DNA from: Spirochaetaceae bacterium
GTDB taxonomy: Bacteria > Spirochaetota > Spirochaetia > DSM-2461
Direction: 5' to 3'
Assembly: GCA_051531975.1 (NCBI GenBank)
Contig: JAOPTT010000010.1
Span: 64,001 to 128,000 of the forward strand
DNA: 64,000 bases
The notes under the pieces are model-generated. The model searched no databases. It was not told the origin of the DNA and saw only the letters and a list, made by a program, of their open reading frames with translations. Below are positions 30,317 to 46,983 of this stretch, piece after piece. Both the position numbers and the translations under genes were made by a program. How positions within the stretch are numbered: position 1 is the first letter of the stretch; each line of letters starts with the position of its first letter.

Positions 30317-30472
30317 GTTATTCCCCTTAAGATAATAATACACTGAATACGTTAATTTACCTATTATTAAAACAAATGCAACAAACCTATGTTCAAATTC
30401 CATTTATATTTATCTATAAAAATTATGTTGCATATCATTCTTAACATTCCTACAATTAATATTGAGGGCACA

Positions 30473-31357
30473 ATGAAGGATGTTGCAGATTTAAAAAAAC
30501 GTATACAACTGCTGACGGAGCAAATAGAAAACCTAACATTAAGAAACAGTGAATTATCAGAAGAGTTAAATCAAATGAGGGTGATATATGTTAGTTCCAT
30601 GGATTATGGATCTACACTTGAAAACGAACTTGATCAGCAGATTAAAATCCTATCAAAAGAAAATTCAGTAGAACCGAAGAGCAGTATGGATCACGACAGA
30701 GATCTTAGACTAAGATTAACACTTGAAATATCAAAAAATGAACACTTAGAACTAATAAATAAGAGCCTTATGGAACAGGTAGAACAGTTAAGAGTTCTAT
30801 ATGTTAATGTCTCTTCCCATTCTACAGCTCTAGAAAACGATCTAGACGAAAAATATGAAGAAGTTAAGCGTTTATCAATAACCGATCCTCTTACTGGAAT
30901 ATATAATAGAAGTGGATTTTACAAATCTGCAGAAGCCATAATAGATAATATGAAAAGAAAAAATATGCCACTTTCAATAATTATGATGGATATTGATAAT
31001 TTCAAGATCTGTAACGATACACATGGTCATGACGTAGGAGATGAAGTACTGATAAGTATAACAAAGACATGTTTAAAATCTATAAGAAAAAGCGATATAT
31101 TGGCTAGATGGGGTGGGGAAGAATTTATATTTATTGTTCCTGAACTTAATATGAATAAAACTATAGAGTTAGCAGAGAGAATTAGAGAGAACATTGAAAG
31201 TGAGATCTATAATATTTGTGAAAAAATAACCTGTAGCTTTGGAGTATCCACATTTAATAATGAACCTATAGAACATTGTATTAAACGATCTGACTTAGCT
31301 CTATATGAAGCAAAAAATAGGGGTAAAAACAGAGTGGAAGGATATAAAGATGGATAA
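30473..31357 (+). CDS. Diguanylate cyclase with duplicated coiled-coil N-terminus
   Basis: TDPLTG, RKSD and RWGGEEF motifs; start probably ATG 30473 after GAGG. Confidence 0.9.
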   Translation: MKDVADLKKRIQLLTEQIENLTLRNSELSEELNQMRVIYVSSMDYGSTLENELDQQIKILSKENSVEPKSSMDHDRDLRLRLTLEISKNEHLELINKSLMEQVEQLRVLYVNVSSHSTALENDLDEKYEEVKRLSITDPLTGIYNRSGFYKSAEAIIDNMKRKNMPLSIIMMDIDNFKICNDTHGHDVGDEVLISITKTCLKSIRKSDILARWGGEEFIFIVPELNMNKTIELAERIRENIESEIYNICEKITCSFGVSTFNNEPIEHCIKRSDLALYEAKNRGKNRVEGYKDG

Positions 31358-32345
31358 AAAAGAGCAGATGGAAAAAATTTTTAAATTACTTAACGATTCA
31401 TGGACCGGAGCTGCATTATCAGCAGGTATGTCAGCCGGTATATTTAACACAATTCAAAGTCGAAACAAGTGGACCCAGAAGGAACTTGCCCAAGAGCTGG
31501 ATTTTGATCAAAATAAACTTGATATGTGGCTCTATTTTGCAGAGCATATGCAGTGGGTAACAAAAGTTGATAATAATTACAGTCTAACAGATTATGGAAT
31601 GAATTTTACTAAAGATGCTGGGTCTCCTGATATAAAGGGATTACTTCAGCTTTCTCAATATTATTTAAATGCAGCATCCCATGCTGATGAAACATTTAAA
31701 CCCCATAAAAGTCTTGATAAATTAAGTGATGGTAAAATAAGCAGAGAATATCAGCCTAGGGTTTCTGATAATTTTTCGATTGCCCTTAAGGATCTTTTTA
31801 TTAAACATGATTTTAAACCAAACGAAACACTTCTTGATGTTGGTTGTGGTAACGGTAGTTTCTTAAGAAATATTGGTCCACATATGGTAGATATAAAACT
31901 GGTAGGTGTGGATACAAACTTATTTGCCATTGAAAAGGGTAAACAAATTAACAAACAGGAAAAACCTATTAATCCTATAAAATTATTGGCTGGAGATATA
32001 ACAGAGGATATGGATGATTTTAAAGATAAATCATACGACTGGGTGACATCAATAAATGTTATGCATTTCATTGATATGTCTAATAGATTACCTGTGATTG
32101 AAAATATGATAAGAATAGCAAAAAAAGGGGTTTTTATTACACAGGTTATGATTGAATCTACTCCATTATCAAGATCTGCCAATCCATTAATGGGTCTATT
32201 ATGGAATGATTTTACTGGATTTTTTTATAAAAATGAAATTGACAATATAAATAGATATTTGCAAAGTAAATTTTTAGACCACTCATTTAAAGTTGAAAAA
32301 ATTATGCATGGTAATAGCTCAATTTTAATAATCGAAAAAAAATAG
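31350..32345 (+). CDS. Class I SAM methyltransferase with N-terminal winged-helix/dimerisation domain
   Basis: LLDVGCGNG; ELAQELD HTH-like segment; YDWVTSINVMH; start overlaps the DGC 3' end. Confidence 0.8.
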   Translation: MDKKEQMEKIFKLLNDSWTGAALSAGMSAGIFNTIQSRNKWTQKELAQELDFDQNKLDMWLYFAEHMQWVTKVDNNYSLTDYGMNFTKDAGSPDIKGLLQLSQYYLNAASHADETFKPHKSLDKLSDGKISREYQPRVSDNFSIALKDLFIKHDFKPNETLLDVGCGNGSFLRNIGPHMVDIKLVGVDTNLFAIEKGKQINKQEKPINPIKLLAGDITEDMDDFKDKSYDWVTSINVMHFIDMSNRLPVIENMIRIAKKGVFITQVMIESTPLSRSANPLMGLLWNDFTGFFYKNEIDNINRYLQSKFLDHSFKVEKIMHGNSSILIIEKK

Positions 32346-32355
32346 TGAGGACTAT

Positions 32356-33789
32356 ATGTTTTTAGATAATATTATAAATCTTGGAATAGAAAAATCTGAT
32401 GAGGTTAATACCGTTAGATATAAAAGACAGATTAATGGACTTAATCTTTTTTATACAGCAATTGCGTTAAGTGTTGGACTTATTTCATTTATTTTATTAA
32501 ATAAATCCCGAGTTGGATTATTTCTAGGATATGTACAAATTTTAGCCACGCTTATGTATGCTGGTAATTTATATAATAATAGAATTAAATTCAAAAAATA
32601 TGTAAATCATCTGACTATTTTAGCTTTTGAATTGCATCTGTTTTTATGTGCACTATTAACTGGATTATTTGATAGTCCCGTTGCTATTGTTATTGTTTTA
32701 TTCCCGTTATTAGCTGCTTTAGTTGAAGTATCAATATTTCTCCATCTCTTTATTGGTCTATTCCAATTTATGTTATTAATTATGTTTCATTTTATTTTTC
32801 CTGAGTTGGAAAACAGTATTAATACATATCTGGGTATTACTGAAAGTTCTACTGTTATTCTTAGAATAATGGGATTAGGTTATTTTCCTATAATGTCAGC
32901 TGGAATAATTAATATTATATTTGCTGAAAATTTATCTGCAAGAAAAAAACAGAAAGTGATGATAAAAGAACTAAGTAGGATGCATCATAAATTAAAAATT
33001 TATGCTGACGCATTAAAAGATGAATCTATAAGGTTAAAAGCCGAAGTGAATATTGCCAAAGATATACAGGCGATGGTACTGCCAGATGATAATGATTTAT
33101 CAGATTTAAGTGATCAGGAAGTATCCTGTATAATGCGTCCCGCCGATGAAGTTGGTGGTGATTATTACGATGTTATTCAATCTGATGGAAAGCTTGTATT
33201 TGGTATAGGAGATGTGACAGGTCATGGACTAGCATCGGGAATTATTATGTTAATGGCTCAAACTGCTATTAAAACTATAGTAGAGACAAAGTCAGCTAAG
33301 TATGAAGAGTATCTACCAATTGTTAATAAGGTTCTTTTTGATAATATAAATAGAATAAATGCAAATAGAAATATGACTCTTGCTCTTTTTAATTACCTTG
33401 GAAATGGTAGATATATAGCAACAGGACAACATGAATATTTTATAATATATAGAGCTAAAACAAAACAGATAGAGATTAACGATACAATGGACGATGGTTT
33501 TTTTATAGGAATGATAGAATCTGTAACTGAATTTTCAAATTTAAACGATTTTGTATTATACAAAGATGATATTCTATTACTTTTTTCAGATGGTGTAACA
33601 GAAGCAGAGGATATGGATAGCAACCAATTTGGTTTAGAACGACTTGTACAATATCTTGAACAATATGCAGAACTTCCACCAAGTAAAATAAAACAGAAAA
33701 TCATGCAGAAAATATATAATTACATAGGAGACAGAGATATTCTAGATGATATTTCACTATTAATAATAAAACAAAAGGAGTGTTTATGA
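32356..33789 (+). CDS. Membrane-bound PP2C/SpoIIE serine phosphatase
   Basis: About 5-6 TM helices; EVGGDYYD, GDVTGHG, FSDGVTEA and DDISL motifs. Confidence 0.9.
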   Translation: MFLDNIINLGIEKSDEVNTVRYKRQINGLNLFYTAIALSVGLISFILLNKSRVGLFLGYVQILATLMYAGNLYNNRIKFKKYVNHLTILAFELHLFLCALLTGLFDSPVAIVIVLFPLLAALVEVSIFLHLFIGLFQFMLLIMFHFIFPELENSINTYLGITESSTVILRIMGLGYFPIMSAGIINIIFAENLSARKKQKVMIKELSRMHHKLKIYADALKDESIRLKAEVNIAKDIQAMVLPDDNDLSDLSDQEVSCIMRPADEVGGDYYDVIQSDGKLVFGIGDVTGHGLASGIIMLMAQTAIKTIVETKSAKYEEYLPIVNKVLFDNINRINANRNMTLALFNYLGNGRYIATGQHEYFIIYRAKTKQIEINDTMDDGFFIGMIESVTEFSNLNDFVLYKDDILLLFSDGVTEAEDMDSNQFGLERLVQYLEQYAELPPSKIKQKIMQKIYNYIGDRDILDDISLLIIKQKECL

Positions 33790-34346
33790 ACAAAGCGCTA
33801 ATTAAAAGAACTGTATTTTTTTCAAATGAAGACAATATATCCAATATGGTTCACATAACCCTTCTACCTAAAGATCTTGCATTGTACTGGCAGCGATGTG
33901 GATTAACTGCTGATTTTGGTGCATCCTTTGCATCATTTTGTTTTCCAAAAATATCTGAAGCTAAAAATTCATTATCTGTAATATTAAATGAACTTGTTGA
34001 AAATGCAGTAAAATACAGCTCAGAGAGTAGTAAAAGAATAAAAATAACACTTTGTGATAATGATGGTTTCCTATATTTTGAGGTTGAAAACTATATATCT
34101 GATGAACAAAAAAAGTTATTTATTGATTTCATTGAAAAATTAGAAAGTGCTGAAGATATAAATGACTTTTATACGGAAGCTATGGAAAAGGCTATGACTG
34201 GTGAGGGTTCCGGACTTGGACTATTGACTATTTTAAATGATTATAATGTCGGAATGTCATTTACTTTTAGCAAAAAGCAAGATTTTCCTTCATTCCATAT
34301 AGTAAAACTTCAGGTCAGAATTAATCCGGAGGGCATAATATGTTAA
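33786..34346 (+). CDS. Slr1658/SiaB-like (DUF6272-type) GHKL protein kinase
   Basis: WQRCGLTADF; NELVENAVKYS; GSGLGLLT. Confidence 0.75.
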   Translation: MNKALIKRTVFFSNEDNISNMVHITLLPKDLALYWQRCGLTADFGASFASFCFPKISEAKNSLSVILNELVENAVKYSSESSKRIKITLCDNDGFLYFEVENYISDEQKKLFIDFIEKLESAEDINDFYTEAMEKAMTGEGSGLGLLTILNDYNVGMSFTFSKKQDFPSFHIVKLQVRINPEGIIC

Positions 34347-34687
34347 AAATTGAAGGTGATATCTATTTAGTATGGTATAAAGATAACGACCATATTATAC
34401 ATTTTGAGGGTTCATTAAGGTTATGGGACCCTGGAGAATATGGCAGAATAAAACAGTATATGCTTGATATATATGAACTTGATACTAAAACCCTTTCTAT
34501 AGATTTAACAAAATTAGAGTTTTTAAACAGTTCAGGAATAAGTATGTTGTGCAAATTTGTATTTGATATTAAAAAAGGTAACCAGCTTCCAATAATTATA
34601 ATTGGTAAAAAAGATATATTATGGCAAAGAAAATCTCTGCATAATCTAAAAAAATTATGGGATAAAATTGAGTTAAAGTTAATATAA
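34340..34687 (+). CDS. Slr1659-like STAS anti-anti-sigma-type protein
   Basis: FEGSLRL; LEFLNSSGI phospho-Ser motif; WQRKSLHNL. Confidence 0.75.
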   Translation: MLKIEGDIYLVWYKDNDHIIHFEGSLRLWDPGEYGRIKQYMLDIYELDTKTLSIDLTKLEFLNSSGISMLCKFVFDIKKGNQLPIIIIGKKDILWQRKSLHNLKKLWDKIELKLI

Positions 34688-34733: not shown

Positions 34734-36497
34734 TTATGGTAAAGCTGTAAAAAAGTCTGCAGAAACTATATCTCTGTTAATATTTTTAATTAATATATTT
34801 ACAGTTTTACCACTATCAGAAAATATCAATTGCCTATCTGTACCAGAAGGAGTTGTCTGATTAGTAATAATATTGTCTCGTATAGTATCAGATATAATTA
34901 TTCCAGAAATTGTTAGCTTTAATATATCAGTCTCAGCAAGTCTATTAAAATCCCATATAATATCGGTGCTTGAAGATCCAGCATCATCAATTTCAAATAC
35001 AAAAGTATCATCACCATCTAGTCCAAATAGGTCGTCATCTCCACCTTGTCCATCAATTATATCATTTCCTGAACCAACACCATCTAAAGTACCAATCTGG
35101 GAACTAAAAATATTTGATAAGACACCATTAACATAGTCATATAACAGTCCTGAGGAATCTTCCCAAAGTAAAAAATCTGTAGTTCCATCTGTACCATCAC
35201 CACCTTGTCCGTAGCCTCCACTAGCCATATTGTATAATGGTGTACTTATATTTATAGGTTGATTTGAACTATTTAGACCGCCAAAACCGGCACCTCCACC
35301 AGCTCCAAAAGCATTATTTCCAGTTCCACCTAGAGATTGTTCAGTAAAATAACCTGATCCATTATTATATGGAATAGCACTATGCCCACCCCACATTTTA
35401 TCATTTGAAGCAGTTCCACCAATAGGTTTACTTGTAACACCACCATCAAAACCACCAAATAAAGAAGTTCCAGCAGTAGTACTCGATTGAGCACCTCCTC
35501 CACCAGCAAGAAGCCCCCCAATACCACCATTACCTTGTGGGGATGCATTAGAACCGCCGCCACCGCCACCGCCTCCGAAGCCTCCATTAGCTCCATTATA
35601 ATCACCTACACCAAGACCAGAAGTACCATTAAATCCATCACCAAATATTATATCGTTTCCGCTACCACCAAAAATGATATCAGAACCAGAACCTGCTGTT
35701 CCACCAGGAGAGACACGATATTGCTCACCGCCTCCACCTCCACCACTTCCATCTCCGAATATTACATCGTTTCCAGAACTAGCAGTAATAACATCGTCAC
35801 TTCCACCACCATTACCACCAGCGGCATCGCTGCTGTAGTCTGTACTATAATCTCCAGAACCACCACTTCCACTTCCATCACCAGCATAATATCCTATTGC
35901 TGTTCCCCAAATTGAATATAAAATGATGTTATTAGCCGGCATTAAAAATGGTGGTGTTATAACACTCCCATCAGAAGTCAGGGACCAACCACTAAAAAAG
36001 TGACCAGTAAAAGCTATACCTGATCCATCATTTAAAGTTATTTCGGCACCTTCTAAATATGCTGTACTATCAACTGGTAAACTTCCAGTTCCACCATTTA
36101 GATCATATGTAATGCTATATGTATCTATTTCTATAGCTATAGCTGAAACATTAATAATGACATTATTACTTCCAGTACTTATATCAACTGTAGTTTCACC
36201 AGTGTATAACAATACGGATCTATCTAAATTATATAAATTCAATACAAATTTTCGATCAGTTCCTAATAAAACATCTACAGAAATGAACTCAACCTGAGTA
36301 GTTATTGTAATATCATCAAAATCTGATGCAGAAACTATTAATTCATATAAATAAGCATCGTCGGTTATAGCTCTAGATGATGGTAACGTTAAGTTTATAG
36401 TAGAAAATTTAGAATTATTATCAGATGAAAAAAGTTCACAACCTGCTATTAATAATATAAATATTAAAGATACAAAAAAAATCTTTTTCATAATCAC
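34734..36497 (-). CDS. Surface lipoprotein with InlB-B/Flg_new repeat and Gly-rich RTX-like Ca-binding repeats
   Basis: LIAGC lipobox; YSITYDLNGG...FSGWS; SGNDVIFGDG, GGSGNDIIFGDG, GSGNDIIDGQGGDDDLFGLDGDDTFVF. Confidence 0.7.
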   Translation of the reverse strand: MIMKKIFFVSLIFILLIAGCELFSSDNNSKFSTINLTLPSSRAITDDAYLYELIVSASDFDDITITTQVEFISVDVLLGTDRKFVLNLYNLDRSVLLYTGETTVDISTGSNNVIINVSAIAIEIDTYSITYDLNGGTGSLPVDSTAYLEGAEITLNDGSGIAFTGHFFSGWSLTSDGSVITPPFLMPANNIILYSIWGTAIGYYAGDGSGSGGSGDYSTDYSSDAAGGNGGGSDDVITASSGNDVIFGDGSGGGGGGEQYRVSPGGTAGSGSDIIFGGSGNDIIFGDGFNGTSGLGVGDYNGANGGFGGGGGGGGSNASPQGNGGIGGLLAGGGGAQSSTTAGTSLFGGFDGGVTSKPIGGTASNDKMWGGHSAIPYNNGSGYFTEQSLGGTGNNAFGAGGGAGFGGLNSSNQPINISTPLYNMASGGYGQGGDGTDGTTDFLLWEDSSGLLYDYVNGVLSNIFSSQIGTLDGVGSGNDIIDGQGGDDDLFGLDGDDTFVFEIDDAGSSSTDIIWDFNRLAETDILKLTISGIIISDTIRDNIITNQTTPSGTDRQLIFSDSGKTVNILIKNINRDIVSADFFTALP

Positions 36498-36720: not shown

Positions 36721-37422
36721 ATGGATTTCTTTAAGTGTGAACAAGAGATACTTAACAATGCAGAAGAATTCTTAACCCTTGAGAATAAACCGTCTGACGC
36801 ATATACAGATGAGTACCTAAAGTTATATCGTGGTTTTAAGAAGCTATTAAAAGAGTCAAAAAAACTTATCTCATTATCAGATATTACCCATAAACAGTTA
36901 AAAGATAGTGAGGAAAAGTTAACAGAATTATCTATAAGAGATCCATTAACAGGTTTACTAAATAGACGTGGAGTTTATCAGTGGCTTGATGATGAATTGG
37001 TTAGACTTAAACGAAACAATACAACTTTGGCTATTTTTATTATGGATATAGACTTTTTTAAAGATGTAAATGATACATATGGCCATACTGCCGGGGATTA
37101 TGCATTACAGCAACTAGCTAACCTATATCATGACTCTGTAAGAGAACAAGATTGTATTGGTCGTTGGGGTGGAGAAGAGTTTATATTAGTACTTCCTAAT
37201 ACCGATGCCACTGGAGCTTTTAATCTTGGTGAGAAACTTAGAAAAAGAGTGGAAGATTTTATAATCATATATGATAATAAACGTATAGAATTAAAGATAT
37301 CATTAGGTGGTTGTAGTTTAGATGAAAATACAACTCTAGATGACTGTCTAAAGTGTGCTGATAATGCACTTTATAAAAGTAAAGCGGAGGGAAGAAATAA
37401 GGTGACTATGCATGAATCTTGA
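36721..37422 (+). CDS. siaD: SiaD-like diguanylate cyclase
   Basis: Helical N-terminus (LLKESKKLISLSD); RDPLTGL, REQD and RWGGEEF; adjacent to siaB/C/A-like genes. Confidence 0.8.
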   Translation: MDFFKCEQEILNNAEEFLTLENKPSDAYTDEYLKLYRGFKKLLKESKKLISLSDITHKQLKDSEEKLTELSIRDPLTGLLNRRGVYQWLDDELVRLKRNNTTLAIFIMDIDFFKDVNDTYGHTAGDYALQQLANLYHDSVREQDCIGRWGGEEFILVLPNTDATGAFNLGEKLRKRVEDFIIIYDNKRIELKISLGGCSLDENTTLDDCLKCADNALYKSKAEGRNKVTMHES

Positions 37423-37960
37423 AAGTTTATCCAATATCTATCAACTATTAAATGAAGATGGAATAATAATTAGTTATCAGGGTGTTTTTCATCAAGAAAT
37501 TATTGAAGAGATTACTTCTATAATTAATCTTAAGCTTTCTTCTGATCCCGGAACAAAAAATAAGCATAAATATCTTACAATGTTTGTTGAATTATCCCAG
37601 AATATTTTAAGATACTCATCAGATTCTCTATTGAACAGTGAAGGGAAACAGATTAGTACAGGTATTATACTAGTTGGAACTAAAGATGATAAAATATTTG
37701 TTATTAGTGGGAATCCTATTAGTCCAGAATATAGAGATGATATTGATGAAAAGTTAAAAACACTAACAACCTTATCTGTAGAAGATCTGAATATGGTATA
37801 TAAACAGCAACTAAAAACAAAAGACCGACATAACTTTAATAAAAGTGCAGGTTTAGGATTGGTAGATATTATAAGAAAAGCGGATAAATCCGAATATAAT
37901 ATACATGACCAATCCCCTGGAAAACCTTTTTTAACAATAAAAGTAGAGTATAAGCTTTAA
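37412..37960 (+). CDS. siaB: SiaB family protein kinase (DUF6272)
   Basis: ISYQG; FVELSQNILRYS; SGN; SAGLGLVDIIRK. Confidence 0.85.
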   Translation: MNLESLSNIYQLLNEDGIIISYQGVFHQEIIEEITSIINLKLSSDPGTKNKHKYLTMFVELSQNILRYSSDSLLNSEGKQISTGIILVGTKDDKIFVISGNPISPEYRDDIDEKLKTLTTLSVEDLNMVYKQQLKTKDRHNFNKSAGLGLVDIIRKADKSEYNIHDQSPGKPFLTIKVEYKL

Positions 37961-37969
37961 TCTATAAAT

Positions 37970-38341
37970 TTAATCTATAACTTTAATATTATAGGGGAAT
38001 TGGAAATCTTCCAGTAGATCTTCCCCTGTCTCTTTTGCTACTTCGTTATCAGCATTATATAACCAGTTTACAGATACTTTTTTACCTTTTTTAAAAGCCT
38101 CTTCTAATATATCAAAAAGATAAAACATAGCTTTAGTACTACTAGTATTAAGATACAATAACCGGACATTCAGTTCAAAAATTATACCTTCCTTCTCTAA
38201 ATATTCCTCTACCCAGGTTATTACTGGTTCATAAAAATTACTTGAGTTTTCTGGATATGATTGTCCATCAATAGTAAACAGTCTGTTTTCTTCGTCAAAA
38301 AGTATTCGTGGTGTCGATTTTCCTACTGCTATATCTATCAT
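37970..38341 (-). CDS. siaC: SiaC family regulatory phosphoprotein (DUF1987)
   Basis: STP; GQSYPEN; FYEP; YLNTSSTK; VNWLY. Confidence 0.9.
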   Translation of the reverse strand: MIDIAVGKSTPRILFDEENRLFTIDGQSYPENSSNFYEPVITWVEEYLEKEGIIFELNVRLLYLNTSSTKAMFYLFDILEEAFKKGKKVSVNWLYNADNEVAKETGEDLLEDFQFPYNIKVID

Positions 38342-40374
38342 TTGTCTTCCTTCAATTTAAACCCCATAAGAGTAATATCATCTCTCTGACTATAGCCATC
38401 TTGAAAGTCTGCTAAATCTTTTTGGAGGGTATCTAAGTAACTATTCATGTTTTTACCAGTAGCTTTTTTAAGAGCTGCTAAATATCTTTTCCACCCAAAA
38501 CTAAACTCCTTTTCTCCACCACTTTGGTCTATATAACCATCAGTAGTAAAGTGAAAAGACATTCCCCTCTGGATATCTATTTGTTGTGTTGTATATACAT
38601 AATCATACTTTGATCTTTTATAACCAACACCTTGTTTGTCACCTTTATATTCAACTATGTCCCCATTTAAAAGGGTAAATAGTCTAATTTTTGATCCTGA
38701 GAATTGTAGAGATTTTGTATCACTATTATAGATACAAAGCCCAATATCAAGACCATCATCTTTTATTTCATATATATTATCCTGGGACAGTACTTGTTTA
38801 AGTAGTCTATTAAGATTAGATAATATAACACCTGGATCATCACTATTTATATGCTGTACAATTCTCTCTAACTGAGATTTTGCAGACATTGTTAATAGCG
38901 CCCCTGGTACACCATGACCAGTACAATCTATAACAGCGGCAATAAAACCATTATCTTTTTTCATTATCCAGTAAAAATCACCACCTACAACATCTTTTGG
39001 TTTCCAGTCAAGATAATGATCAAAAAATATCTCATCTAGTTGTGCCTTAGATGGTAAGATAGAGTTCTGAATCAAAGCAGCATACTCTATACTCTGCATT
39101 ACTTCCCTGTTCTTAACTTTTAACTCTTTAGTACGATCTTCAACTTTATGTTCCAAAGTTTCATTTAGTTCAAGGTTCACACTATAAGATTTTTCTAAAG
39201 AGGTATGAGTCTGGGCAAAACGTTTACCTAATATTACAGTAAAAGTTATAACCAAGAGGAAAAAACCTTCACCAATAAACGGTGATTTAGCTAATATACC
39301 CATGAAACATAACATACTGTATACAAAAGAAACTGACAGTAAAAGAATACCCACAAGCATAGTTTTTGAGTAAAAAAACTTAAGTTTAATAGCTCTAATT
39401 GAGACAAAAACGAGGTAAAATACTACTAAGATGTAGCTAAAGTTGAAACCATTATATAAATATTTACCAAAATTAAAAATTTGACCTGTAAAGAGATATT
39501 CAACTAAAATGAAAGAAGTCATGAACAAATATAATCCAATAAATATTTTTGCTCCAAGTTTTAGTTTTAGGTTATAAAACGAATGGATGAATAAAATAGG
39601 GAACATATACATATTTACTCCACCAACAAATGTTATAACCCAATATCCCCATGCTTTATCAATTAAATAATAGGCTAGACCATAATATCCAATGGTAAAT
39701 AATGCTACAGATAAACTGAAACCTGAGATGTATAGGTTGTATCGTTCTTGTTTTCTATATAAATACATTATAAAGAAATATAGAGCAAGGAAAAGACTAA
39801 CAAATGAGATAGCTGAATTTTTAATAACATATATTATCCAGTTTTGCTGTAATTCTTTATAATTACCTATCTTAACAAAACCACTAAAACCACCAACAGA
39901 ACTAAAACTACCAGCTTTAATTAATAGTGAATTTTCTCCAGTGTTTATAAGGCTATTACTAAGTTTTAAAGCTATAGGTTTGTGACCAAATTTATTATAT
40001 CCATTATATATTAAATTGTTATTAAGGTATAACTCATATCCTCCATAACTTAATGGAATGTATACCCCAAGTTCTTCATTTATTACATCAGGACTAAGGA
40101 TAAAAGAAATTTGATACCATGCATCCCCATAATGAGTTGCTAATTCTGGAATTGAATACTTCCATGGACTTGCTGTGGATATAGAAAACCAGTCATCATA
40201 GTTTATATTATCCATTTCATTATATTCTTTATCTTCTATTGAGAAGTTCCACTCAGTATTTAAACTGTAGACTTTATTATAGTCATCAACTAGTAGTGGT
40301 TTTACACTTTCTGCATATGTAGACAATGAGCATAAAGTTATTAGTAATATTATAACATGATTTCTGATTTTCAT
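38338..40374 (-). CDS. siaA: SiaA-like sensor phosphatase: extracellular jelly-roll domain, 7TM-DISM-like region and SpoIIE/PP2C domain
   Basis: Signal peptide; about 7 TM helices; SIEYAALIQ, PKDVVGGDFYW, DCTGHGVPGA, TDGYIDQSGG and QRDDIT motifs. Confidence 0.82.
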   Translation of the reverse strand: MKIRNHVIILLITLCSLSTYAESVKPLLVDDYNKVYSLNTEWNFSIEDKEYNEMDNINYDDWFSISTASPWKYSIPELATHYGDAWYQISFILSPDVINEELGVYIPLSYGGYELYLNNNLIYNGYNKFGHKPIALKLSNSLINTGENSLLIKAGSFSSVGGFSGFVKIGNYKELQQNWIIYVIKNSAISFVSLFLALYFFIMYLYRKQERYNLYISGFSLSVALFTIGYYGLAYYLIDKAWGYWVITFVGGVNMYMFPILFIHSFYNLKLKLGAKIFIGLYLFMTSFILVEYLFTGQIFNFGKYLYNGFNFSYILVVFYLVFVSIRAIKLKFFYSKTMLVGILLLSVSFVYSMLCFMGILAKSPFIGEGFFLLVITFTVILGKRFAQTHTSLEKSYSVNLELNETLEHKVEDRTKELKVKNREVMQSIEYAALIQNSILPSKAQLDEIFFDHYLDWKPKDVVGGDFYWIMKKDNGFIAAVIDCTGHGVPGALLTMSAKSQLERIVQHINSDDPGVILSNLNRLLKQVLSQDNIYEIKDDGLDIGLCIYNSDTKSLQFSGSKIRLFTLLNGDIVEYKGDKQGVGYKRSKYDYVYTTQQIDIQRGMSFHFTTDGYIDQSGGEKEFSFGWKRYLAALKKATGKNMNSYLDTLQKDLADFQDGYSQRDDITLMGFKLKEDK

Positions 40375-40390
40375 TGTAACTTCCTATTTT

Positions 40391-40597
40391 TTAGTAATAA
40401 AACCCTATTTTTGTAGTCTTCATATCTTCTTTGTTATCTACAAGTTTTTTACTATCATCTTCAGAGACATCATAACCTTTATCCTGAAACCAAGATGCAA
40501 CTGTTTTGTGGTCACTACTATCAACAACTTTGAGTAATTCTTCACCAATAGTGGTGTCTTTTGCAGCATCTGCAATAAAATCAATAAAATTTTTCAT
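40391..40597 (-). CDS. RiPP precursor A, Nif11-like leader, C-terminus KIGFYY
   Basis: 68 aa; FIxxAxKD...EL...W-F...GYDVSEDD pattern of Nif11-type leaders; paralog at 41235; flanked by maturases. Confidence 0.75.
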   Translation of the reverse strand: MKNFIDFIADAAKDTTIGEELLKVVDSSDHKTVASWFQDKGYDVSEDDSKKLVDNKEDMKTTKIGFYY

Positions 40598-40634
40598 TCA
40601 AATTCCTTCATTTTTGATTTAATACGGTTTTTTA

Positions 40635-40663
40635 ATTTTAAGAGATATTAGACTTACTGTCAA
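40635..40663 (-). promoter_or_regulatory. sigma70 promoter for precursor A-siaA-siaC
   Basis: TTGACA-17 nt-TAAAAT. Confidence 0.65.
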
Positions 40664-40682
40664 ACTTTTAATTGAATACTTA

Positions 40683-41207
40683 TTATTTGATATATATCCC
40701 ATACATTATGAAATCAACTGAAGAATTACCATAGGATATCCATGCAAAACCTTTTATCCCCCACAACCTACCCCATGAGTTTTTAATAAGCCATGCCTGC
40801 TTTTCATCATCATACCCAATTACTGTTACCGCATGACCACCAAATGATTTTCCAAATCTATGTCTGTATATACCTTTTCTATAAAATATTAGATCTAATC
40901 TGAAGTTCAGTATGGATAATAATGGACCTTTGCTATCAAGCCACTCTTTCATTTTTATCTGTTTATCCAGAGCTGTATAATCTGTTATTATTTTTTTATC
41001 CTTTAATAAAGTAAGAGTCTGATAGATATTATTTGCACTAGTAGGATATTTTTTAAGAAACTGTCTTTCCGATATTAGGCAGTATTTACCTGTTTTTTTA
41101 AATTTTAAAATCTCAAGGTTTGCTAAAACTGCATAGACTATACATACAGATCTGAAGCCTTGATTTTTTATTGGTAGATCTGGAAATTTATTATTAAGAA
41201 TAGGCAT
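40683..41207 (-). CDS. Minimal papain-like (C1A) cysteine peptidase without signal peptide
   Basis: NQGFRSVC (Cys at Q+6 as in papain), GGHAV and KNSWG motifs. Confidence 0.8.
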
Positions 41208-41234
41208 AGTAAACTCCCAGATTTATATTTTGGA

Positions 41235-41441
41235 TTAGTAATATAACCCTATTTTTTGTGATGCTATAGAGTCTTTATTCATCATGATCTTTTCACACTC
41301 ATCTTGGTTGATTGAATAACCCTGATTCTCAAACCATGTTGAAATCTCTGTGATGTTTGAACCCACAATCTTGTTGTTTAATTCTGTTGCCATACTCTCG
41401 TTTTTTGCTGCGTCTGCAACAAAATCAATAAAATTTTTCAT
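41235..41441 (-). CDS. RiPP precursor B, Nif11-like leader, C-terminus KIGLYY
   Basis: 68 aa; aligns without gaps to precursor A, 28/68 identical by manual count. Confidence 0.75.
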   Translation of the reverse strand: MKNFIDFVADAAKNESMATELNNKIVGSNITEISTWFENQGYSINQDECEKIMMNKDSIASQKIGLYY

Positions 41442-41470: not shown

Positions 41471-41499
41471 ATATTAGTGTTGTAACTCTTTACTGTCAA
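41471..41499 (-). promoter_or_regulatory. sigma70 promoter for precursor B and the peptidase
   Basis: TTGACA-17 nt-TAATAT; shares TTGACAGTAA with the promoter at 40663. Confidence 0.6.
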
Positions 41500-41516
41500 G
41501 GAATTTAAAATAGTTG

Positions 41517-41552
41517 ATAACCCTATAACCCTATAACCCTATAACCCTATAA
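41517..41552. repeat. Perfect 8-bp tandem repeat ATAA(CCCTATAA)x4
   Basis: Seen directly in the divergent intergenic region between precursor B and the radical SAM operon. Confidence 0.95.
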
Positions 41553-41606
41553 TTATACACATAAAAGTCTAAAATTAGTGTCTTAATAAAAAAAAATTCT
41601 TTTTCA

Positions 41607-41642: not shown

Positions 41643-42656
41643 ATGTTATCTATAGAAGTAACAACAAAATGTAATTTACGATGTATTAATTGTTTTGCCC
41701 ATGATTCCTCCCATGTATTTGAACATCTTGGACTTAAGAAAGCAGAAGAGATAGCTCTTGAGGGTCGAGTTTTAGGTTATAAATCTATCAGTCTTACAGG
41801 TGGTGAGACCTTTTTGTGGCCTTATATACTCGGTTTTTTAACTTACCTTAAAAGTATTGGATATGAAACAATATTGATAAATAGTAACTTACACCTATTA
41901 ACTGAAGAGTTATGTAACAAACTGTCTAAATTTACTGATCTGTTGACCATTAGTTGTAGTATTAATGGATTTAAAGATGAACACGAAATTGTTAGAGGGA
42001 TTGGAAGTTACGATAAAGTAATTACAGGATTAAAAAATGCTATAACGTACGGTTTAAAAATGATTGTATATACAGTCGTTAATAGAAGAAACTTATATGA
42101 TATTCCTAAATTTACTGAGTGGTTATTTAAACAGTTCCCAGAAATTATAGATCTAGTTTTTATACAGTTAAGAGGAATAGACGACGGTTACTACCAGGTA
42201 GAAGACCTTAAACTAGAACCAAAAGATTTAATTGAGTTTGTTAAAATGATCAGCTATTTAAGTCTTGGTGGATATAATGTAAGCATATTAGAGAACTCAT
42301 TATCTACTGTTGTTGCAGAGATGCTTGGTTTTAAGTGGTATCCTAAGAGTCCAGAGATATCTAGAGATGGCAAAATAGTTGTAATGCAAACTGGGGTTAT
42401 TACAGATAATCACTCCAGTTTAGAAATATTAGGGAACTATAACAATCAATCCCTTAAAGATGTATTAGAATCAAAAGAATATAGAGAATTATGTGTAGAC
42501 GAGTCTAAATTATGTATAGGTTGTAAATTTATTTCAATATGTAGAAAGTCCGGTAAAGTGAGACCATCAGATATGTATCATAATACTGGAGACAGTGATT
42601 ATTACTACTGTCAAAAAGTATTAAGTCAGATAACCCAAGGAGTTATAAATGAATGA
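41643..42656 (+). CDS. Radical SAM enzyme with partial SPASM domain (peptide maturase-like)
   Basis: EVTTKCNLRCINC (CX3CX2C); LTGGE; SINGFKDEHEIVRGIGSY; C-terminal CIGCKFISIC...YYC. Confidence 0.85.
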   Translation: MLSIEVTTKCNLRCINCFAHDSSHVFEHLGLKKAEEIALEGRVLGYKSISLTGGETFLWPYILGFLTYLKSIGYETILINSNLHLLTEELCNKLSKFTDLLTISCSINGFKDEHEIVRGIGSYDKVITGLKNAITYGLKMIVYTVVNRRNLYDIPKFTEWLFKQFPEIIDLVFIQLRGIDDGYYQVEDLKLEPKDLIEFVKMISYLSLGGYNVSILENSLSTVVAEMLGFKWYPKSPEISRDGKIVVMQTGVITDNHSSLEILGNYNNQSLKDVLESKEYRELCVDESKLCIGCKFISICRKSGKVRPSDMYHNTGDSDYYYCQKVLSQITQGVINE

Positions 42657-44397
42657 TTTATTGTTAATTGTACCACCCTTTTTTTCCCCTGAATTACAGT
42701 CATTAGGACTACACAATTTACAGGCATGCGCTAGAAAAGAGGGATTCAGTACAGATATAAAATATGTTAACTTTGAATTAGCTAGACGTTTAGGAGATAA
42801 CTTTAAAAACTTCTGTGTTATGAACTATTTCCAATTAGGAGAGAGGATTTTTGCAAAAGCCGCTTGGGGGGATCTAGTTGGTGAGCAATTTTATGACGGA
42901 TTATATGATTTTTCTGACATATTTGACTGGGATAGGAATCCTGTTAAATTCTTTGATGAACAGAATCAATTAACAATAGCAGAGCTAAAAAAGTGTGAAA
43001 AAATAGCTACGTCCTGGCTTTTAGACCTTGAAGAACAATTTAAAGATCTACCTTACAAATATGTTGGTATTTCTAGCTCCTATGAACAGATAAATGCTGG
43101 CATAGCTTTATTTAAAATAATTAAACGGTTAAACCCAGAAATTATAACCTTTATTGGGGGATTTAACTGTGAAGAAGAGATGGCTAAAGGCATAGCATCT
43201 TTAGATAGTGATAGACAGTATATAGATTACATCTTCAGTGGAGAGAGCGAGATAAGCCTAATCAACTTTTTAAAAGATGGTGGATCAAAAAATAGAATTA
43301 TTCGAAGTGAACTTTTACAAGATATGAATATAATCCCGGATCTAGACTACTCAGACTATTTTAACCAGCTAAATTTTAAGACAGAGCATAAATTATTGGT
43401 TATGGAGCATAGCCGTGGCTGCTGGTGGGGAGAAAAAACCCAATGCAAATTCTGTGGAGTTGGACGTCTACAATTTAGAAAAAAGAATTTTGATCGGATT
43501 AAAACAGAGTTAGAAAATGCTAAAAAGTGGGGTATTAAGAGATTGCATATGGCAGATTTAGCTATGCCTGATTCACATTTAACAGACCTTCTTCCCCACC
43601 TCATAGATGAGGATTATGGCTGGGAGATATATTTTGAACAGAAGGTATCCCTTAACTATGAGCAGTTAAAACTCTTAAAGAAATCTGGAGTAAATGAAAT
43701 TCAACCTGGAATCGAAACCCTTAGCGACAATGTATTAAAAAAGATGTCTAAGGGTACTTCAATGAGACAAAATTTAACATTTCTACGTGATGGAACATCT
43801 CTGGGGTTAGAAGTCTTATGGAATATAGTGTGGGGAATTCCTGGAGAGACAATAGAAGATTATAGAGAGATGAATAAATTAATACCTCTACTAGTCCATC
43901 TTATGCCACCTGTAGGGATATTCCATATGACGTTGGTACGTTTTAGTCCATATTTTAATAATCCGAAACAGTATGGGATAACAAATATTAAACCTATAAA
44001 ATCATATTACGATGTATATCCAGATTTTGTAGATATAGACAATTTGGCTATGATATTTAAGTGTGAACATAACGAAGAAAACCTAAATGATAAAACAGAG
44101 TTAATAAAATTTTTAGAACTATTGGAGAGTTGGAACTCAAGGTGGGAGAATAACCTATTTACTCCAAAACTTGAGATAACTAAACTAGGTGATGGCACTG
44201 TAATACTGCTTGATACTCGGGGAATAGAGGGTTGTGAAGTTAAGAGAGAACTAAGTCCAGTAGAAATAGAATTATTATTATATCCTGCTATTTATACTAA
44301 TAGCGATATGGAGAATATGTTTATAGAAAACAAAGTAGCCATACTAGATGATGGATTTTTTATACCACTTGTTATAATTACAGAGGAGATGAGATAA
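42649..44397 (+). CDS. B12-dependent radical SAM RiPP C-methyltransferase (TIGR03975-like)
   Basis: N-terminal B12-binding fold (PPF...SLGL; FIGGFNCE; FSGESE); SRGCWWGEKTQCKFCG (CX7CX2C); IQPGIE; WNIVWGIPGE; LVHLMPP; RFSPYF. Confidence 0.85.
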   Translation: MNDLLLIVPPFFSPELQSLGLHNLQACARKEGFSTDIKYVNFELARRLGDNFKNFCVMNYFQLGERIFAKAAWGDLVGEQFYDGLYDFSDIFDWDRNPVKFFDEQNQLTIAELKKCEKIATSWLLDLEEQFKDLPYKYVGISSSYEQINAGIALFKIIKRLNPEIITFIGGFNCEEEMAKGIASLDSDRQYIDYIFSGESEISLINFLKDGGSKNRIIRSELLQDMNIIPDLDYSDYFNQLNFKTEHKLLVMEHSRGCWWGEKTQCKFCGVGRLQFRKKNFDRIKTELENAKKWGIKRLHMADLAMPDSHLTDLLPHLIDEDYGWEIYFEQKVSLNYEQLKLLKKSGVNEIQPGIETLSDNVLKKMSKGTSMRQNLTFLRDGTSLGLEVLWNIVWGIPGETIEDYREMNKLIPLLVHLMPPVGIFHMTLVRFSPYFNNPKQYGITNIKPIKSYYDVYPDFVDIDNLAMIFKCEHNEENLNDKTELIKFLELLESWNSRWENNLFTPKLEITKLGDGTVILLDTRGIEGCEVKRELSPVEIELLLYPAIYTNSDMENMFIENKVAILDDGFFIPLVIITEEMR

Positions 44398-45056
44398 TGG
44401 AAAAAGTTGTAAATGATAAAAAAATATGGGATGAGATATACGAAAAAGAGAACTTTACACCTGGATGGGGAAGCCCAGGTTTGGATAATAATATAGTTAC
44501 CTATGTAAAAGCTTATATAAATGAGTACAAACTTAAATCATTGTCCATATTAGATATTGGTTGTGGTAATGGTAGAAATTCCTTTGTAAAAGAGGAGCTG
44601 GAGAAAGATGGAGTTATTGTAGATTATACAGGTGCTGATTTTTCAGAGAAAGCTCTGACATACTGTAGGGAAACTTATACAGATAAAGAGTTTATACATC
44701 TTGATATTACTGATAATAACCTTCCTTTAAAAGAGAGTTATGATGTTATTATTGACTGTGGTTGTTTCCACGCTATTCCACCTGAAGTTCGTATTAAATA
44801 CATAGATAATGTAAAAAAACATTGCTCAGATAGTAGTTTATTAATTATTGGTGCATGGTACCGGGAAGAGAAACATACAGAAGTAGATAAACCTTCATAC
44901 TTTCCCTACCTCTATTTAGACGAATGGTTTCTTAATAGAAGTGATATGACCCAGATATTTAATAATAAGTTTAATGTTATATCTGAGCTTGTTGATAACA
45001 GGATATATGAAGGTTTAAACAAAGGCTTCGCATATTTTAGATTAAGACTTTGTTAA
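44397..45056 (+). CDS. Class I SAM-dependent methyltransferase
   Basis: ILDIGCGNGRN; GADFS; YDVIIDCGCFH. Confidence 0.88.
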   Translation: MEKVVNDKKIWDEIYEKENFTPGWGSPGLDNNIVTYVKAYINEYKLKSLSILDIGCGNGRNSFVKEELEKDGVIVDYTGADFSEKALTYCRETYTDKEFIHLDITDNNLPLKESYDVIIDCGCFHAIPPEVRIKYIDNVKKHCSDSSLLIIGAWYREEKHTEVDKPSYFPYLYLDEWFLNRSDMTQIFNNKFNVISELVDNRIYEGLNKGFAYFRLRLC

Positions 45057-45947
45057 TGGTGGTATAACTCCGGTTATACCCCACATCTCAGAATCTACAC
45101 CACACTCTCCATACTTAATCCAGAAGTAACCACTCTCTCCCCAGCTTTCACCCCAGGAGTTTTTACATAACCAAGCCTCTTTATCATCTGAATAACCAAC
45201 TATAGTTATGCAGTGACCTCCAAGTTCTGGTCCTAATATAGGGCTATAGATTCCTTCTCCATAAAAAAGAAAGTCCGCTCTTAAACTCATAGCACCGATA
45301 AGTGGGCCATTAGTAAATATCCAGCTTTTCATTTCCTCTTCAGTAGTTAGTGTTTTATAACCTTTTATTTTTGTAACCCTATTCTGCCATCCCGTCGACA
45401 GAGCTTTATCCTTATCGTCAGTATCGTAGGGAAACTCTTTTTCAGTTACAACTCCAGTATTAACTAGATAGTTTAGAGCATCTTCCACAGGCCAACCTGT
45501 TTTACAGTTATGGGTACTCGGTGTATCTTCTGGAGAAAACCCAGGGCTCTTAAAAAACAACTGACCTTCAGAGAGATTTATATCCACATTATGTTCAATT
45601 TTTGCCATACTCTCTGTAACTGCTAATGAACCAAAGGCTGCACAGGAACTGCAAAACCCCTGGTTTTTAACAGTTGCCATATAATTTTTACCCTTTTTAT
45701 TTAACCAGTTAAAACTTTTAGGGTAGTCTACTGTAATTATTTTAGTATCCTTCAGATGTTTAATATGGTTTTCCCTAGAAATTTCTACCCTTTCATCTAA
45801 TGATAACGTACTTTCTGTGGTTCTAAATCCAGCTAAACTCTTTAACTCTTCAAAAAGTATACCTGTAAAAAGGTTTAATGAAGGTGTCCACTGGGGTTTC
45901 TCTAACTTTGATAATTCTTTAAAAAATAACTCGTCTAATATACTCAT
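45042..45947 (-). CDS. Papain-like (C1A) cysteine peptidase, cytoplasmic, with N-terminal pro-like region
   Basis: YPKSFNW; VKNQGFCSSCAAF; LSEGQL; GGHCITIVGY; KNSWGESWGESGY. Confidence 0.9.
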   Translation of the reverse strand: MSILDELFFKELSKLEKPQWTPSLNLFTGILFEELKSLAGFRTTESTLSLDERVEISRENHIKHLKDTKIITVDYPKSFNWLNKKGKNYMATVKNQGFCSSCAAFGSLAVTESMAKIEHNVDINLSEGQLFFKSPGFSPEDTPSTHNCKTGWPVEDALNYLVNTGVVTEKEFPYDTDDKDKALSTGWQNRVTKIKGYKTLTTEEEMKSWIFTNGPLIGAMSLRADFLFYGEGIYSPILGPELGGHCITIVGYSDDKEAWLCKNSWGESWGESGYFWIKYGECGVDSEMWGITGVIPPLTKS

Positions 45948-46028: not shown

Positions 46029-46868
46029 ATGAAGAAATATATAATAATATTGTCACTATTAATTACACTTTTTTCATGTTCCAAATTTAGTAAACAACTG
46101 TATCAAGAACATGAAATGGTATTGGTTGAACCTGGTTCCTTTATTATGGGCTCAGATTCTGGGAAAGAGAACGAAAAGCCAGCCCACAAAGTTAAAATAA
46201 CAAGAGCATATTATATAGGTGTTTATGAAGTCACCTTTAATCAGTACGATGCTTATACACTGGAAACTAAAAGGAAATCTGCAGACCCAACTATTAAAGA
46301 TAGAGGGCAAAGACCTGTAATGAGTGTGGACTGGATACAAGCTGTAACCTACTGTAACTGGTTAAGTAAAAAAGAGGGATTCACCCCTTGTTATATAGTA
46401 AAAGGTGTAAAAACAACATGTAATTTTGAAGCCGATGGTTATAGATTACCAACTGAAGCAGAGTGGGAATTTGCAGCCTCTGGGGGGAATAAAAGCAAAG
46501 GATTTATATATTCCGGAAGCAATAATGTTGATGAAGTAGGATGGTATGAAAAAAACTCAAATAACGATTTTTATAATATAGGACTTAAGAAACCTAACGA
46601 ATTAGGACTGTACGATATGTCAGGGAACATGTGGGAATGGTGTTGGGATTATTGGGATAAAGATTATTATAAATATTCACCATCCATAGATCCAACAGGG
46701 CCATTAACAATACCGAAACAGGACATGGCATATAATGTGGAAAAATCCAGGCGTAGCTCCAGATGGTTAAATACAGAATTTTATCTGAGAGTTTTTAACC
46801 GTTCAGCAGACTTCATAAATTATGAGGGAGATAATGGAATACGTCTTGTAAGAAGTAAAGTTAATTAA
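46029..46868 (+). CDS. FGE-sulfatase (SUMF1/EgtB/PvdO) domain lipoprotein, probably non-catalytic
   Basis: LFSC lipobox; FIMGS; YEVT; YRLPTEAEWEFAA; PNELGLYDMSGNMWEWC. Confidence 0.88.
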   Translation: MKKYIIILSLLITLFSCSKFSKQLYQEHEMVLVEPGSFIMGSDSGKENEKPAHKVKITRAYYIGVYEVTFNQYDAYTLETKRKSADPTIKDRGQRPVMSVDWIQAVTYCNWLSKKEGFTPCYIVKGVKTTCNFEADGYRLPTEAEWEFAASGGNKSKGFIYSGSNNVDEVGWYEKNSNNDFYNIGLKKPNELGLYDMSGNMWEWCWDYWDKDYYKYSPSIDPTGPLTIPKQDMAYNVEKSRRSSRWLNTEFYLRVFNRSADFINYEGDNGIRLVRSKVN

Positions 46869-46983
46869 CAATTTATATAATATCCTTTATAGATATAATT
46901 AGATTAATGAAATACAATTCATCTTGGATATCTCACTTAAGATGCTCCGGTTTTGCCTAGTAATTAATATTAACGGAGAAATA

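Follow-up and report, generated by a model that had tools for sequence, protein, structure and literature searches.

Introduction

Peptide pheromones are known mainly from Gram-positive bacteria, where their circuits end in transcription; in the ComQXPA system, the membrane sensor serves as the receptor. A related arrangement, PalP-PalX-PalQ of Paenibacillus alvei, is described as a kinase, a precursor with a large leader and a conserved terminal Trp, and a prenyltransferase (PMC10853753). Two other described systems bear on the present work. According to PMC8457831, SiaA and SiaB set the phosphorylation of SiaC in Pseudomonas aeruginosa, and unphosphorylated SiaC activates SiaD; in mycofactocin biosynthesis, MftC is reported to decarboxylate a C-terminal Tyr (PMC5264612). 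We analyzed a 64,000-nucleotide (nt) stretch of a Spirochaetaceae genome (contig JAOPTT010000010.1, positions 64,001 to 128,000; called the window here), in which the gene for a small precursor-like protein, precursor A, directly precedes the gene for a seven-transmembrane (7TM) receptor of the 7TMR-DISM type that carries a SiaA-like phosphatase domain. Many spirochaete genomes were found to combine precursor, probable modifying enzymes, and receptor, an arrangement suggestive of a peptide-signal system as yet undescribed, and in the window genome this system appears to feed a switch for cyclic di-GMP (c-di-GMP), the biofilm messenger. A literature search that covered titles and abstract openings returned no description of the family; genome-mining tables in supplements could already list the clusters.

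Results

Small Nif11-like proteins tipped with tyrosine

A word-indexed search with precursor A as the query returned one relative only. A search of cluster representatives gave 65 matches, and a profile was then built from 53 sequences. With this profile, matches were obtained in 53 of the 400 other genomes sampled from the phylum, spread over seven families that do not belong to the class of the window, and in 6 of the 37 other genomes of the window's family. Among the 119 distinct complete members from all loci collected, 100 ended in Tyr and 1 in Trp, compared with Tyr ends in 27 of 1,069 long open reading frames (ORFs); the profile itself favors Tyr ends, yet it recovered 18 members with other ends. 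Fifteen different residues were found before the terminal Tyr. Trp-ending precursors were noted at L010:2680-2886 and in P0012 and P0018; at L010, a B12 enzyme gene follows the precursor and no radical S-adenosylmethionine (SAM) gene lies on that contig.

The precursors scored 19.5 and 14.4 bits against PF07862 (cut-off, 23.8) and 15.5 bits against TIGR03798 (cut-off, 32.3), and Nif11 proteins stood among the Atlas neighbors of the precursor at 0.78 to 0.80, a lead only. Classical Nif11-leader precursors have a double-glycine cleavage site and a peptidase-containing ATP-binding cassette (ABC) exporter. No Gly-Gly site was present in the translations of precursors A and B and no such exporter was among the recurring neighbors of precursor loci. 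A classical double-glycine bacteriocin was rejected.

Paralogues without a terminal Tyr exist. In 12 genomes of one genus (L088-L092, L095-L097, and L099-L102), only three parts are left, namely a precursor-like ORF that does not end in Tyr, a divergent receptor, and the prenyltransferase described below, and no radical SAM gene was found; three loci of the same genus (L047, L049, and L052) keep the full gene set. A second type of small protein, with a hydrophobic tail and no Tyr, was seen at L058:7618-7842, L060:7745-7969, L061:12168-12392, and L067:9850-10143, in the company of chemoreceptor and WYL genes and, at three of the four loci, a FabH-like gene.

The precursor gene is linked to one receptor clade

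The pairing of precursor and receptor recurs outside the window genome: it was present in 5 of 5 relatives whose contigs permit a look or fit (seen directly in G001, G005, G010, and G014 and split across two contig ends in G002) and in seven families of other classes. We then searched 401 genomes with the window's sensor part alone, scoring at most four candidates per genome; this search missed the window genome's own paralogue, and four of the loci among its rows belong to the window's family. Among rows of at least 100 bits, 45 had a Tyr- or Trp-ending precursor no more than 1.5 kb upstream on the same strand and 3 did not, 5 being set aside at contig ends; below 100 bits, 4 had one and 55 did not, with 1 set aside. 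Close receptor relatives thus carried an upstream precursor in 45 of 48 cases versus 4 of 59 for distant ones, counts that are inflated and do not represent independent events, since the genomes are related. Of the 57 small genes located within the same 1.5 kb upstream of a receptor, 55 encode a C-terminal Tyr or Trp, and the gap between precursor and receptor ranged from -41 to 412 nt (38 pairs). The linkage is not chance.

In a quick tree of 111 receptor rows, which has many long branches, a 99% branch separates the receptors: the 48 linked ones are all on the same side, and the 36 rows across from them include no linked receptor; the linked side also holds 5 truncated rows, 3 unlinked receptors, and 19 long-branch paralogues. 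Comparison of 37 with 12 dereplicated rows identified clade-specific residues (W226, G232, Y244, T248, Y249, E292, F310, and E369) at helix ends that are predicted by topology to face outward. In the receptor model, which has seven long helices (predicted local distance difference test [pLDDT], 92), these residues fit a pocket on the outer face. When the sensor part of the receptor was modeled in complex with the C-terminal 32 residues of precursor A, the score was 0.02 (mark, 0.32), a value that counts neither for nor against binding. The window genome also encodes a paralogous 7TM-DISM receptor with a similar PP2C domain and no precursor (L245:6357-8441; G000:C2), which could feed the same SiaC.

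A radical SAM enzyme accompanies the precursor

In the 400-genome sample, the radical SAM enzyme of the locus was found in 36 of 41 genomes with a Tyr-ending precursor versus 7 of 359 others, and two of those seven (L188 and L191) proved to hold a precursor missed by the first profile. The family has a CX3CX2C motif at residue 10, and four of its C-terminal cysteines and one His are invariant. Its alignment shows no N-terminal recognition domain, and no close solved relative was found, the best structure match covering the N-terminal half only. Of 38 family genomes, the 7 with the precursor are also the ones with the B12-dependent radical SAM enzyme; a related-locus search of genome contigs with this enzyme as the query gave 0 loci.

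Other neighbors were less constant. Genes resembling geranylgeranyl reductase, B12 enzymes, and assorted peptidases vary between loci. The sequence-only reading had the mature peptide leave through a major facilitator superfamily (MFS) protein, a proposal that comparison did not sustain: of 55 precursor loci from spirochaetes, only that of the window has an MFS gene, and none of 43 from metagenomes does. The window's MFS protein (46924-48174) was therefore rejected as the exporter, having no counterpart in the other 97 precursor loci, a set that includes many short ones. A lipoprotein resembling formylglycine-generating enzyme (FGE; 46029-46868) was likewise rejected as part of the system, there being no FGE matches in the family's loci.

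A prenyltransferase accompanies most precursors in two lineages

A recurring neighbor of the radical SAM gene is ~330 codons long and encodes two Asp-rich motifs. Its product matched no NCBIfam family, and the Pfam polyprenyl_synt family only under the cut-off; a profile search against PDB by sequence gave only E values of >0.07. The predicted model (pLDDT, 90.7) has a trans-isoprenyl-diphosphate-synthase fold, with template modeling (TM) scores of 0.5 to 0.7 to polyprenyl synthases in a fold search. Among precursor loci, 31 of the 55 from spirochaetes and 39 of the 43 from metagenomes have this prenyltransferase; no match to it was found in the window genome, and only 1 of the 38 genomes of that family has it. 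According to a 2026 review (PMC13290415), every characterized prenyltransferase of isoprenoid-synthase fold uses Trp as its acceptor and has a Gln ahead of the second motif. Trp-Arg stood before the second Asp motif in 104 of our 113 sequences, and 9 did not match the search pattern.

Tail hydropathy was 1.3 in the 7 loci without a prenyltransferase versus -1.2 in the 69 with one, and loci of the window's family without the prenyltransferase combine hydrophobic tails with the B12 enzyme. This association is only a hint, because all these loci come from one clade.

As a reciprocal test, metagenomes were scanned with the radical SAM alignment, and the best 80 of 194 relatives were taken; several of the loci are near-duplicates. 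Among 66 close enzymes, a prenyltransferase was adjacent or fused in all 57 with room to see it (6 fusions), and 37 of 47 had a precursor immediately downstream; neither gene accompanied the 14 distant enzymes. The fusion proteins (L133, L146, L147, L149, L153, and L162) comprise ~670 to 680 residues. The gene before the prenyltransferase encoded a zinc ribbon-adenylate/guanylate cyclase-AAA-TPR protein in 37 of the 43 metagenome loci with room; the remaining six comprised four with a 7TM-type receptor and two with a partial match to that receptor cluster. Two ORFs, divided at nearly the same position each time, encode the cyclase-ATPase-TPR partner at five loci (L112, L113, L123, L136, and L163). 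Downstream, the cassette is accompanied at L123:8234-9328 and L139:6632-7717 by a CrtC/lipocalin-like gene, which fits a lipophilic product. Atlas neighbors of one metagenome prenyltransferase were mostly Myxococcota and Thermodesulfobacteriota, a lead only.

Organization of the window locus

The features of the locus are collected in Table 1. The minus strand carries, in this order, a promoter, precursor B, the short papain-like gene, another promoter, precursor A, the receptor gene, and siaC; the radical SAM, B12 radical SAM, and methyltransferase genes run divergently from the precursors, and the second papain-like gene then follows. The short papain-like protease has no obvious signal peptide in its translation. 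The window genome holds one such locus. It also has FlaA, which five sampled genomes of the phylum share and which was absent from all 14 control genomes, in keeping with a spirochaete.

Table 1. Features of the precursor-receptor locus in the window
Feature	Coordinates	Strand	Basis
SiaD-like diguanylate cyclase, stalk and GGEEF domain	36721..37422	+	Pfam GGDEF; best NCBIfam NF038266, below cut-off; best PDB match 7e6g
SiaB-family protein kinase	37412..37960	+	NF038262, 135.2 bits (cut-off 85); sole PDB match 6kko_A
SiaC phosphoswitch protein, Asn-Thr-Ser motif retained	37970..38341	-	PF09345, E 4.8e-39; aligned to 6kko_C
Receptor: jelly-roll outer domain, seven helices (7TMR-DISM), SiaA-like PP2C phosphatase	38338..40374	-	Pfam, predicted model
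Precursor A, 68 residues, Nif11-like, C terminus G-F-Y-Y	40391..40597	-	PF07862, E 0.0012, below cut-off
Sigma-70-type promoter 5' of precursor A	40635..40663	-	11/12 match; position conserved among relatives
Short papain-family (C1) cysteine protease, candidate leader protease	40683..41207	-	PF00112, E 7.7e-18; Cys, His, Asn motifs in translation
Precursor B, 68 residues, 41% identity to A, C terminus G-L-Y-Y	41235..41441	-	Translation
Sigma-70-type promoter 5' of precursor B	41471..41499	-	10/12 match
Radical SAM enzyme with SPASM-like end, probable maturase of nearly all family loci	41643..42656	+	Curated families score far under cut-offs
B12-dependent radical SAM C-methyltransferase of modified-peptide clusters	42649..44397	+	TIGR03975, 430.3 bits (cut-off 281.85)
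Class I methyltransferase, conserved in four related loci	44397..45056	+	Domain scan, locus comparison
Second papain-family (C1) protease, conserved in three related loci	45042..45947	-	PF00112, E 6.3e-42

The local details of the sequence-only reading held on re-examination. Precursor A ends 16 bp before the receptor start on the same strand, with an AGGAAG ribosome site in the gap; the supposed absence of a hairpin was borne out, there being no terminator-like site and only weak folding (-7.1 kcal/mol) in 120 nt across the junction. The receptor gene overlaps siaC by 4 bp, and the promoter reported 5' of precursor A, TTGACA-17-TAAAAT, is in place. An 11/12 promoter match was reached by only 14 of 2,000 shuffles of the stretch upstream of precursor A; overall, promoter-like sites were not more common than in shuffles (39 versus a mean of 53.8). 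All 6 relatives compared, and both window copies, have a TTGAC(A/T) box 54 to 73 nt 5' of the start of the precursor gene. The transcript that had been proposed, precursor-siaA-siaC, fits the spacing, from which precursor A, receptor, and siaC would be co-transcribed; the papain-like gene and precursor B upstream share the strand. The siaB and siaD genes are adjacent, as had been noted, but they lie on the opposite strand and converge on siaC, and thus belong to a separate transcript.

Some further features of the surroundings were seen. Where the precursor B and radical SAM genes diverge, positions 41506-41558 of the promoter region separating them hold about four copies of an 8-bp tandem repeat, the length of which could vary. 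A glycine-rich, lipoprotein-like ORF with RTX-type calcium-binding repeats (34734-36497) adjoins siaD, and one run of genes at 30389-34687 makes up a second switch, with a diguanylate cyclase, a methyltransferase, a membrane PP2C, and slr1658-like and slr1659-like genes.

The Sia switch is one of several outputs

The Sia parts of the window keep their working residues, and the best or only PDB match of each protein is its Sia counterpart; for the SiaD-like cyclase, the match to 7e6g runs over residues 29 to 228, stalk included. The PP2C domain of the receptor had 6k4e as its only PDB match (E value, 8.8e-54), with the metal-binding motifs GGDF, DCxGHG, TDG, and RDD aligned; the metal-binding residues of the SiaA domain are those named in PMC7647112. 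Judged by these comparisons, the Sia module looks complete. The description of the receptor as a SiaA-like sensor phosphatase stood for residues 405 to 674 (NF038263, 241.8 bits; cut-off, 700) and failed for the sensor part, which is unlike that of SiaA. The window genome has one siaB and two siaC matches, the second siaC being an orphan preceded by a 99-residue PP2C remnant (L244:7525-7893; G000:C12).

Output domains were scanned in 37 plus 7 receptor proteins. The same sensor is fused to the SiaA-like PP2C in the window's family and elsewhere to another PP2C, to HisKA-HATPase-REC-PP2C (the most frequent form), to HisKA-HATPase-REC-His_kinase, or to PAS-HisKA_3; the nearest sensor from another family (G233) has the kinase-REC-PP2C form. 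The output of the receptor is swappable. SiaB was present in 5 of 38 family genomes, all 5 among the 7 with a precursor, and neither SiaB, SiaC, nor SiaD was found next to a precursor outside the window's family; a strong SiaC match occurred in only 3 of the 41 genomes of the phylum sample with a Tyr-ending precursor, at unlinked places. A Sia output was therefore rejected as the defining feature of the family, other loci carrying kinase or other phosphatase outputs and SiaC being rare. The peptide circuit with a c-di-GMP output that had been envisaged keeps the support of intact Sia parts here and proved too narrow, as it is one lineage's version.

Discussion

We read the modified, Tyr-tipped peptide as the signal of the co-encoded receptor, and the locus as a peptide-signal cassette, with a probability of roughly 0.6. 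A biosynthetic core whose precursors share their last residue and differ in the rest, and which is linked to a different, unrelated signaling protein in each of two lineages, is best read as signal-making. The 68-residue proteins would be precursors in which a folded Nif11-like leader presents a short tail ending in Tyr. The radical SAM enzyme would modify this tail, most likely at the terminal Tyr, for example by oxidative decarboxylation, for which MftC offers a precedent. In the window lineage, the B12-dependent and class I methyltransferases would methylate the tail; in most relatives, the enzyme of isoprenoid-synthase fold would prenylate it instead. A protease, perhaps papain-like here, would free the hydrophobic tail of ~3 to 6 residues, which would leave the cell by some export step and may then bind the outer face of the 7TM receptor. 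The receptor phosphatase would oppose the SiaB kinase on SiaC, and unphosphorylated SiaC would activate the SiaD-like cyclase. Since phosphatase and kinase set SiaC and SiaC activates the cyclase, the peptide would set c-di-GMP, and the signal could raise or lower its level. That the loci at large represent one family of Tyr-tipped peptide pheromones of diderm bacteria, made by radical SAM enzymes and in many cases prenylated, with two unrelated receptor types and interchangeable outputs, we consider an evenly balanced proposition.

Several observations weigh against a secreted signal for the receptor. Neither an exporter nor a single protease family recurs among precursor loci, and the cyclase-ATPase-TPR partner of the second lineage is cytoplasmic and needs no export. 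The Nif11 match of the precursors is weak, under curated cut-offs. The outer domain of the receptor is a jelly roll that resembles the sugar-binding domains of glycoside hydrolase family 2 (GH2), and because this fold is of a sugar-binding type, the receptor could sense something else. Three close receptors (L186, L190, and L193) have no upstream precursor, and the 19 long-branch receptors inside the linked side, all of one family, have none of their own and stand beside a prenyltransferase gene. To the inflation of the linkage counts is added that the metagenome loci were not dereplicated.

The GH2-like domain and the three unpaired receptors would be expected if the receptor senses another cue, such as a sugar or the state of the envelope, and the pathway controls or accompanies a modified peptide that acts elsewhere, for example as a small antimicrobial or metabolite. 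Regulators beside clusters for ribosomally synthesized and modified peptides are common. We hold this account to be unlikely: it is the precursor that stays next to the receptor, while the enzyme genes move or sit elsewhere; the outputs are mostly second-messenger or phosphoswitch modules rather than linked transcription factors; and no immunity or export gene recurs among the neighbors of precursor loci. The lack of a conserved exporter and the cytoplasmic partner in the second lineage agree, in turn, with a modified peptide that is a signal but stays in the cytoplasm or inner membrane, where it would report on enzyme status (iron-sulfur cluster, SAM, B12, isoprenoid, or oxygen), and prenylated or aromatic tails would partition into membranes. 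This, too, seems improbable to us, given that the clade-specific receptor residues cluster on the predicted outer side, that the variable tails fit strain-specific signals, and that the three-gene PalPXQ cluster and ComX, as presented in PMC10853753, likewise come without an assigned exporter or protease. The weak Nif11 score, the paralogues without terminal Tyr, and the gene order shared by kin speak for an unmodified regulator of the switch or an adjacency inherited by chance. We hold this account to be very unlikely: the radical SAM enzyme and prenyltransferase track the precursor in two lineages with unrelated signaling partners, the cytoplasmic domains of the partner differ between loci, and nearly every small gene upstream of a receptor ends in Tyr or Trp.

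If the signaling reading is true, signaling between cells would reach second messengers by a new route, through a modified peptide by which spirochaetes set c-di-GMP or cyclic nucleotides, and a peptide ligand class, with a concrete candidate ligand, would be named for 7TM-DISM receptors. Two enzyme families that are under curated cut-offs or unmatched would also come into view: a radical SAM enzyme whose target appears to be a C-terminal Tyr, and what would be the first Tyr-directed prenyltransferase of isoprenoid-synthase fold, departing from the Trp-only rule given in PMC13290415.

Each described system shares some of this design. Mycofactocin MftA/MftC, as reported in PMC5264612, likewise joins a radical SAM/SPASM enzyme to a precursor ending in Tyr; it differs in that the window enzyme scores 46 bits against TIGR03962 (cut-off, 265), the tail is variable, and signaling genes are linked, and no MftB-type chaperone gene or linked dehydrogenases were seen at the present loci. 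With SiaABCD of P. aeruginosa (as described in PMC8457831 and PMC7647112), the window shares the PP2C phosphatase, the kinase, a SiaC with Asn-Thr-Ser, and a stalked diguanylate cyclase; it differs in a sensor part unrelated to that of SiaA, two convergent transcripts, and the linked peptide cassette. A full-length SiaA orthologue in one operon with siaBCD is not what the window holds, NF038263 covering residues 405 to 674 only and siaD-siaB being convergent, and the present system is Sia-like only in output. ComQXPA of Bacillus, in the accounts of PMC10853753 and PMC13290415, resembles it in the short modified C-terminal peptide, the precursor gene directly before a membrane sensor gene, and the variable tails; it differs in that an internal Trp is prenylated, there is no radical SAM step, the output is transcriptional, and the host is Gram positive. 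Of the features that mark ComQXP and PalPXQ, the precursor gene beside a membrane sensor is present in our family, and the Trp acceptor and the Gln feature are absent. The closest design is PalP-PalX-PalQ, which has in common a sensor, a large conserved leader with a conserved C-terminal aromatic residue, and a prenyltransferase of isoprenoid-synthase fold, and whose three genes, as PMC10853753 lists them, include no exporter or protease. Its acceptor is Trp, recognized by Gln197 next to the second Asp motif, whereas the present family has Tyr as the terminal residue and Trp-Arg at that position. Compared with it, the window genome is without a prenyltransferase, and the family adds a radical SAM enzyme and differs in its Nif11-like leader and its 7TM-DISM sensor.

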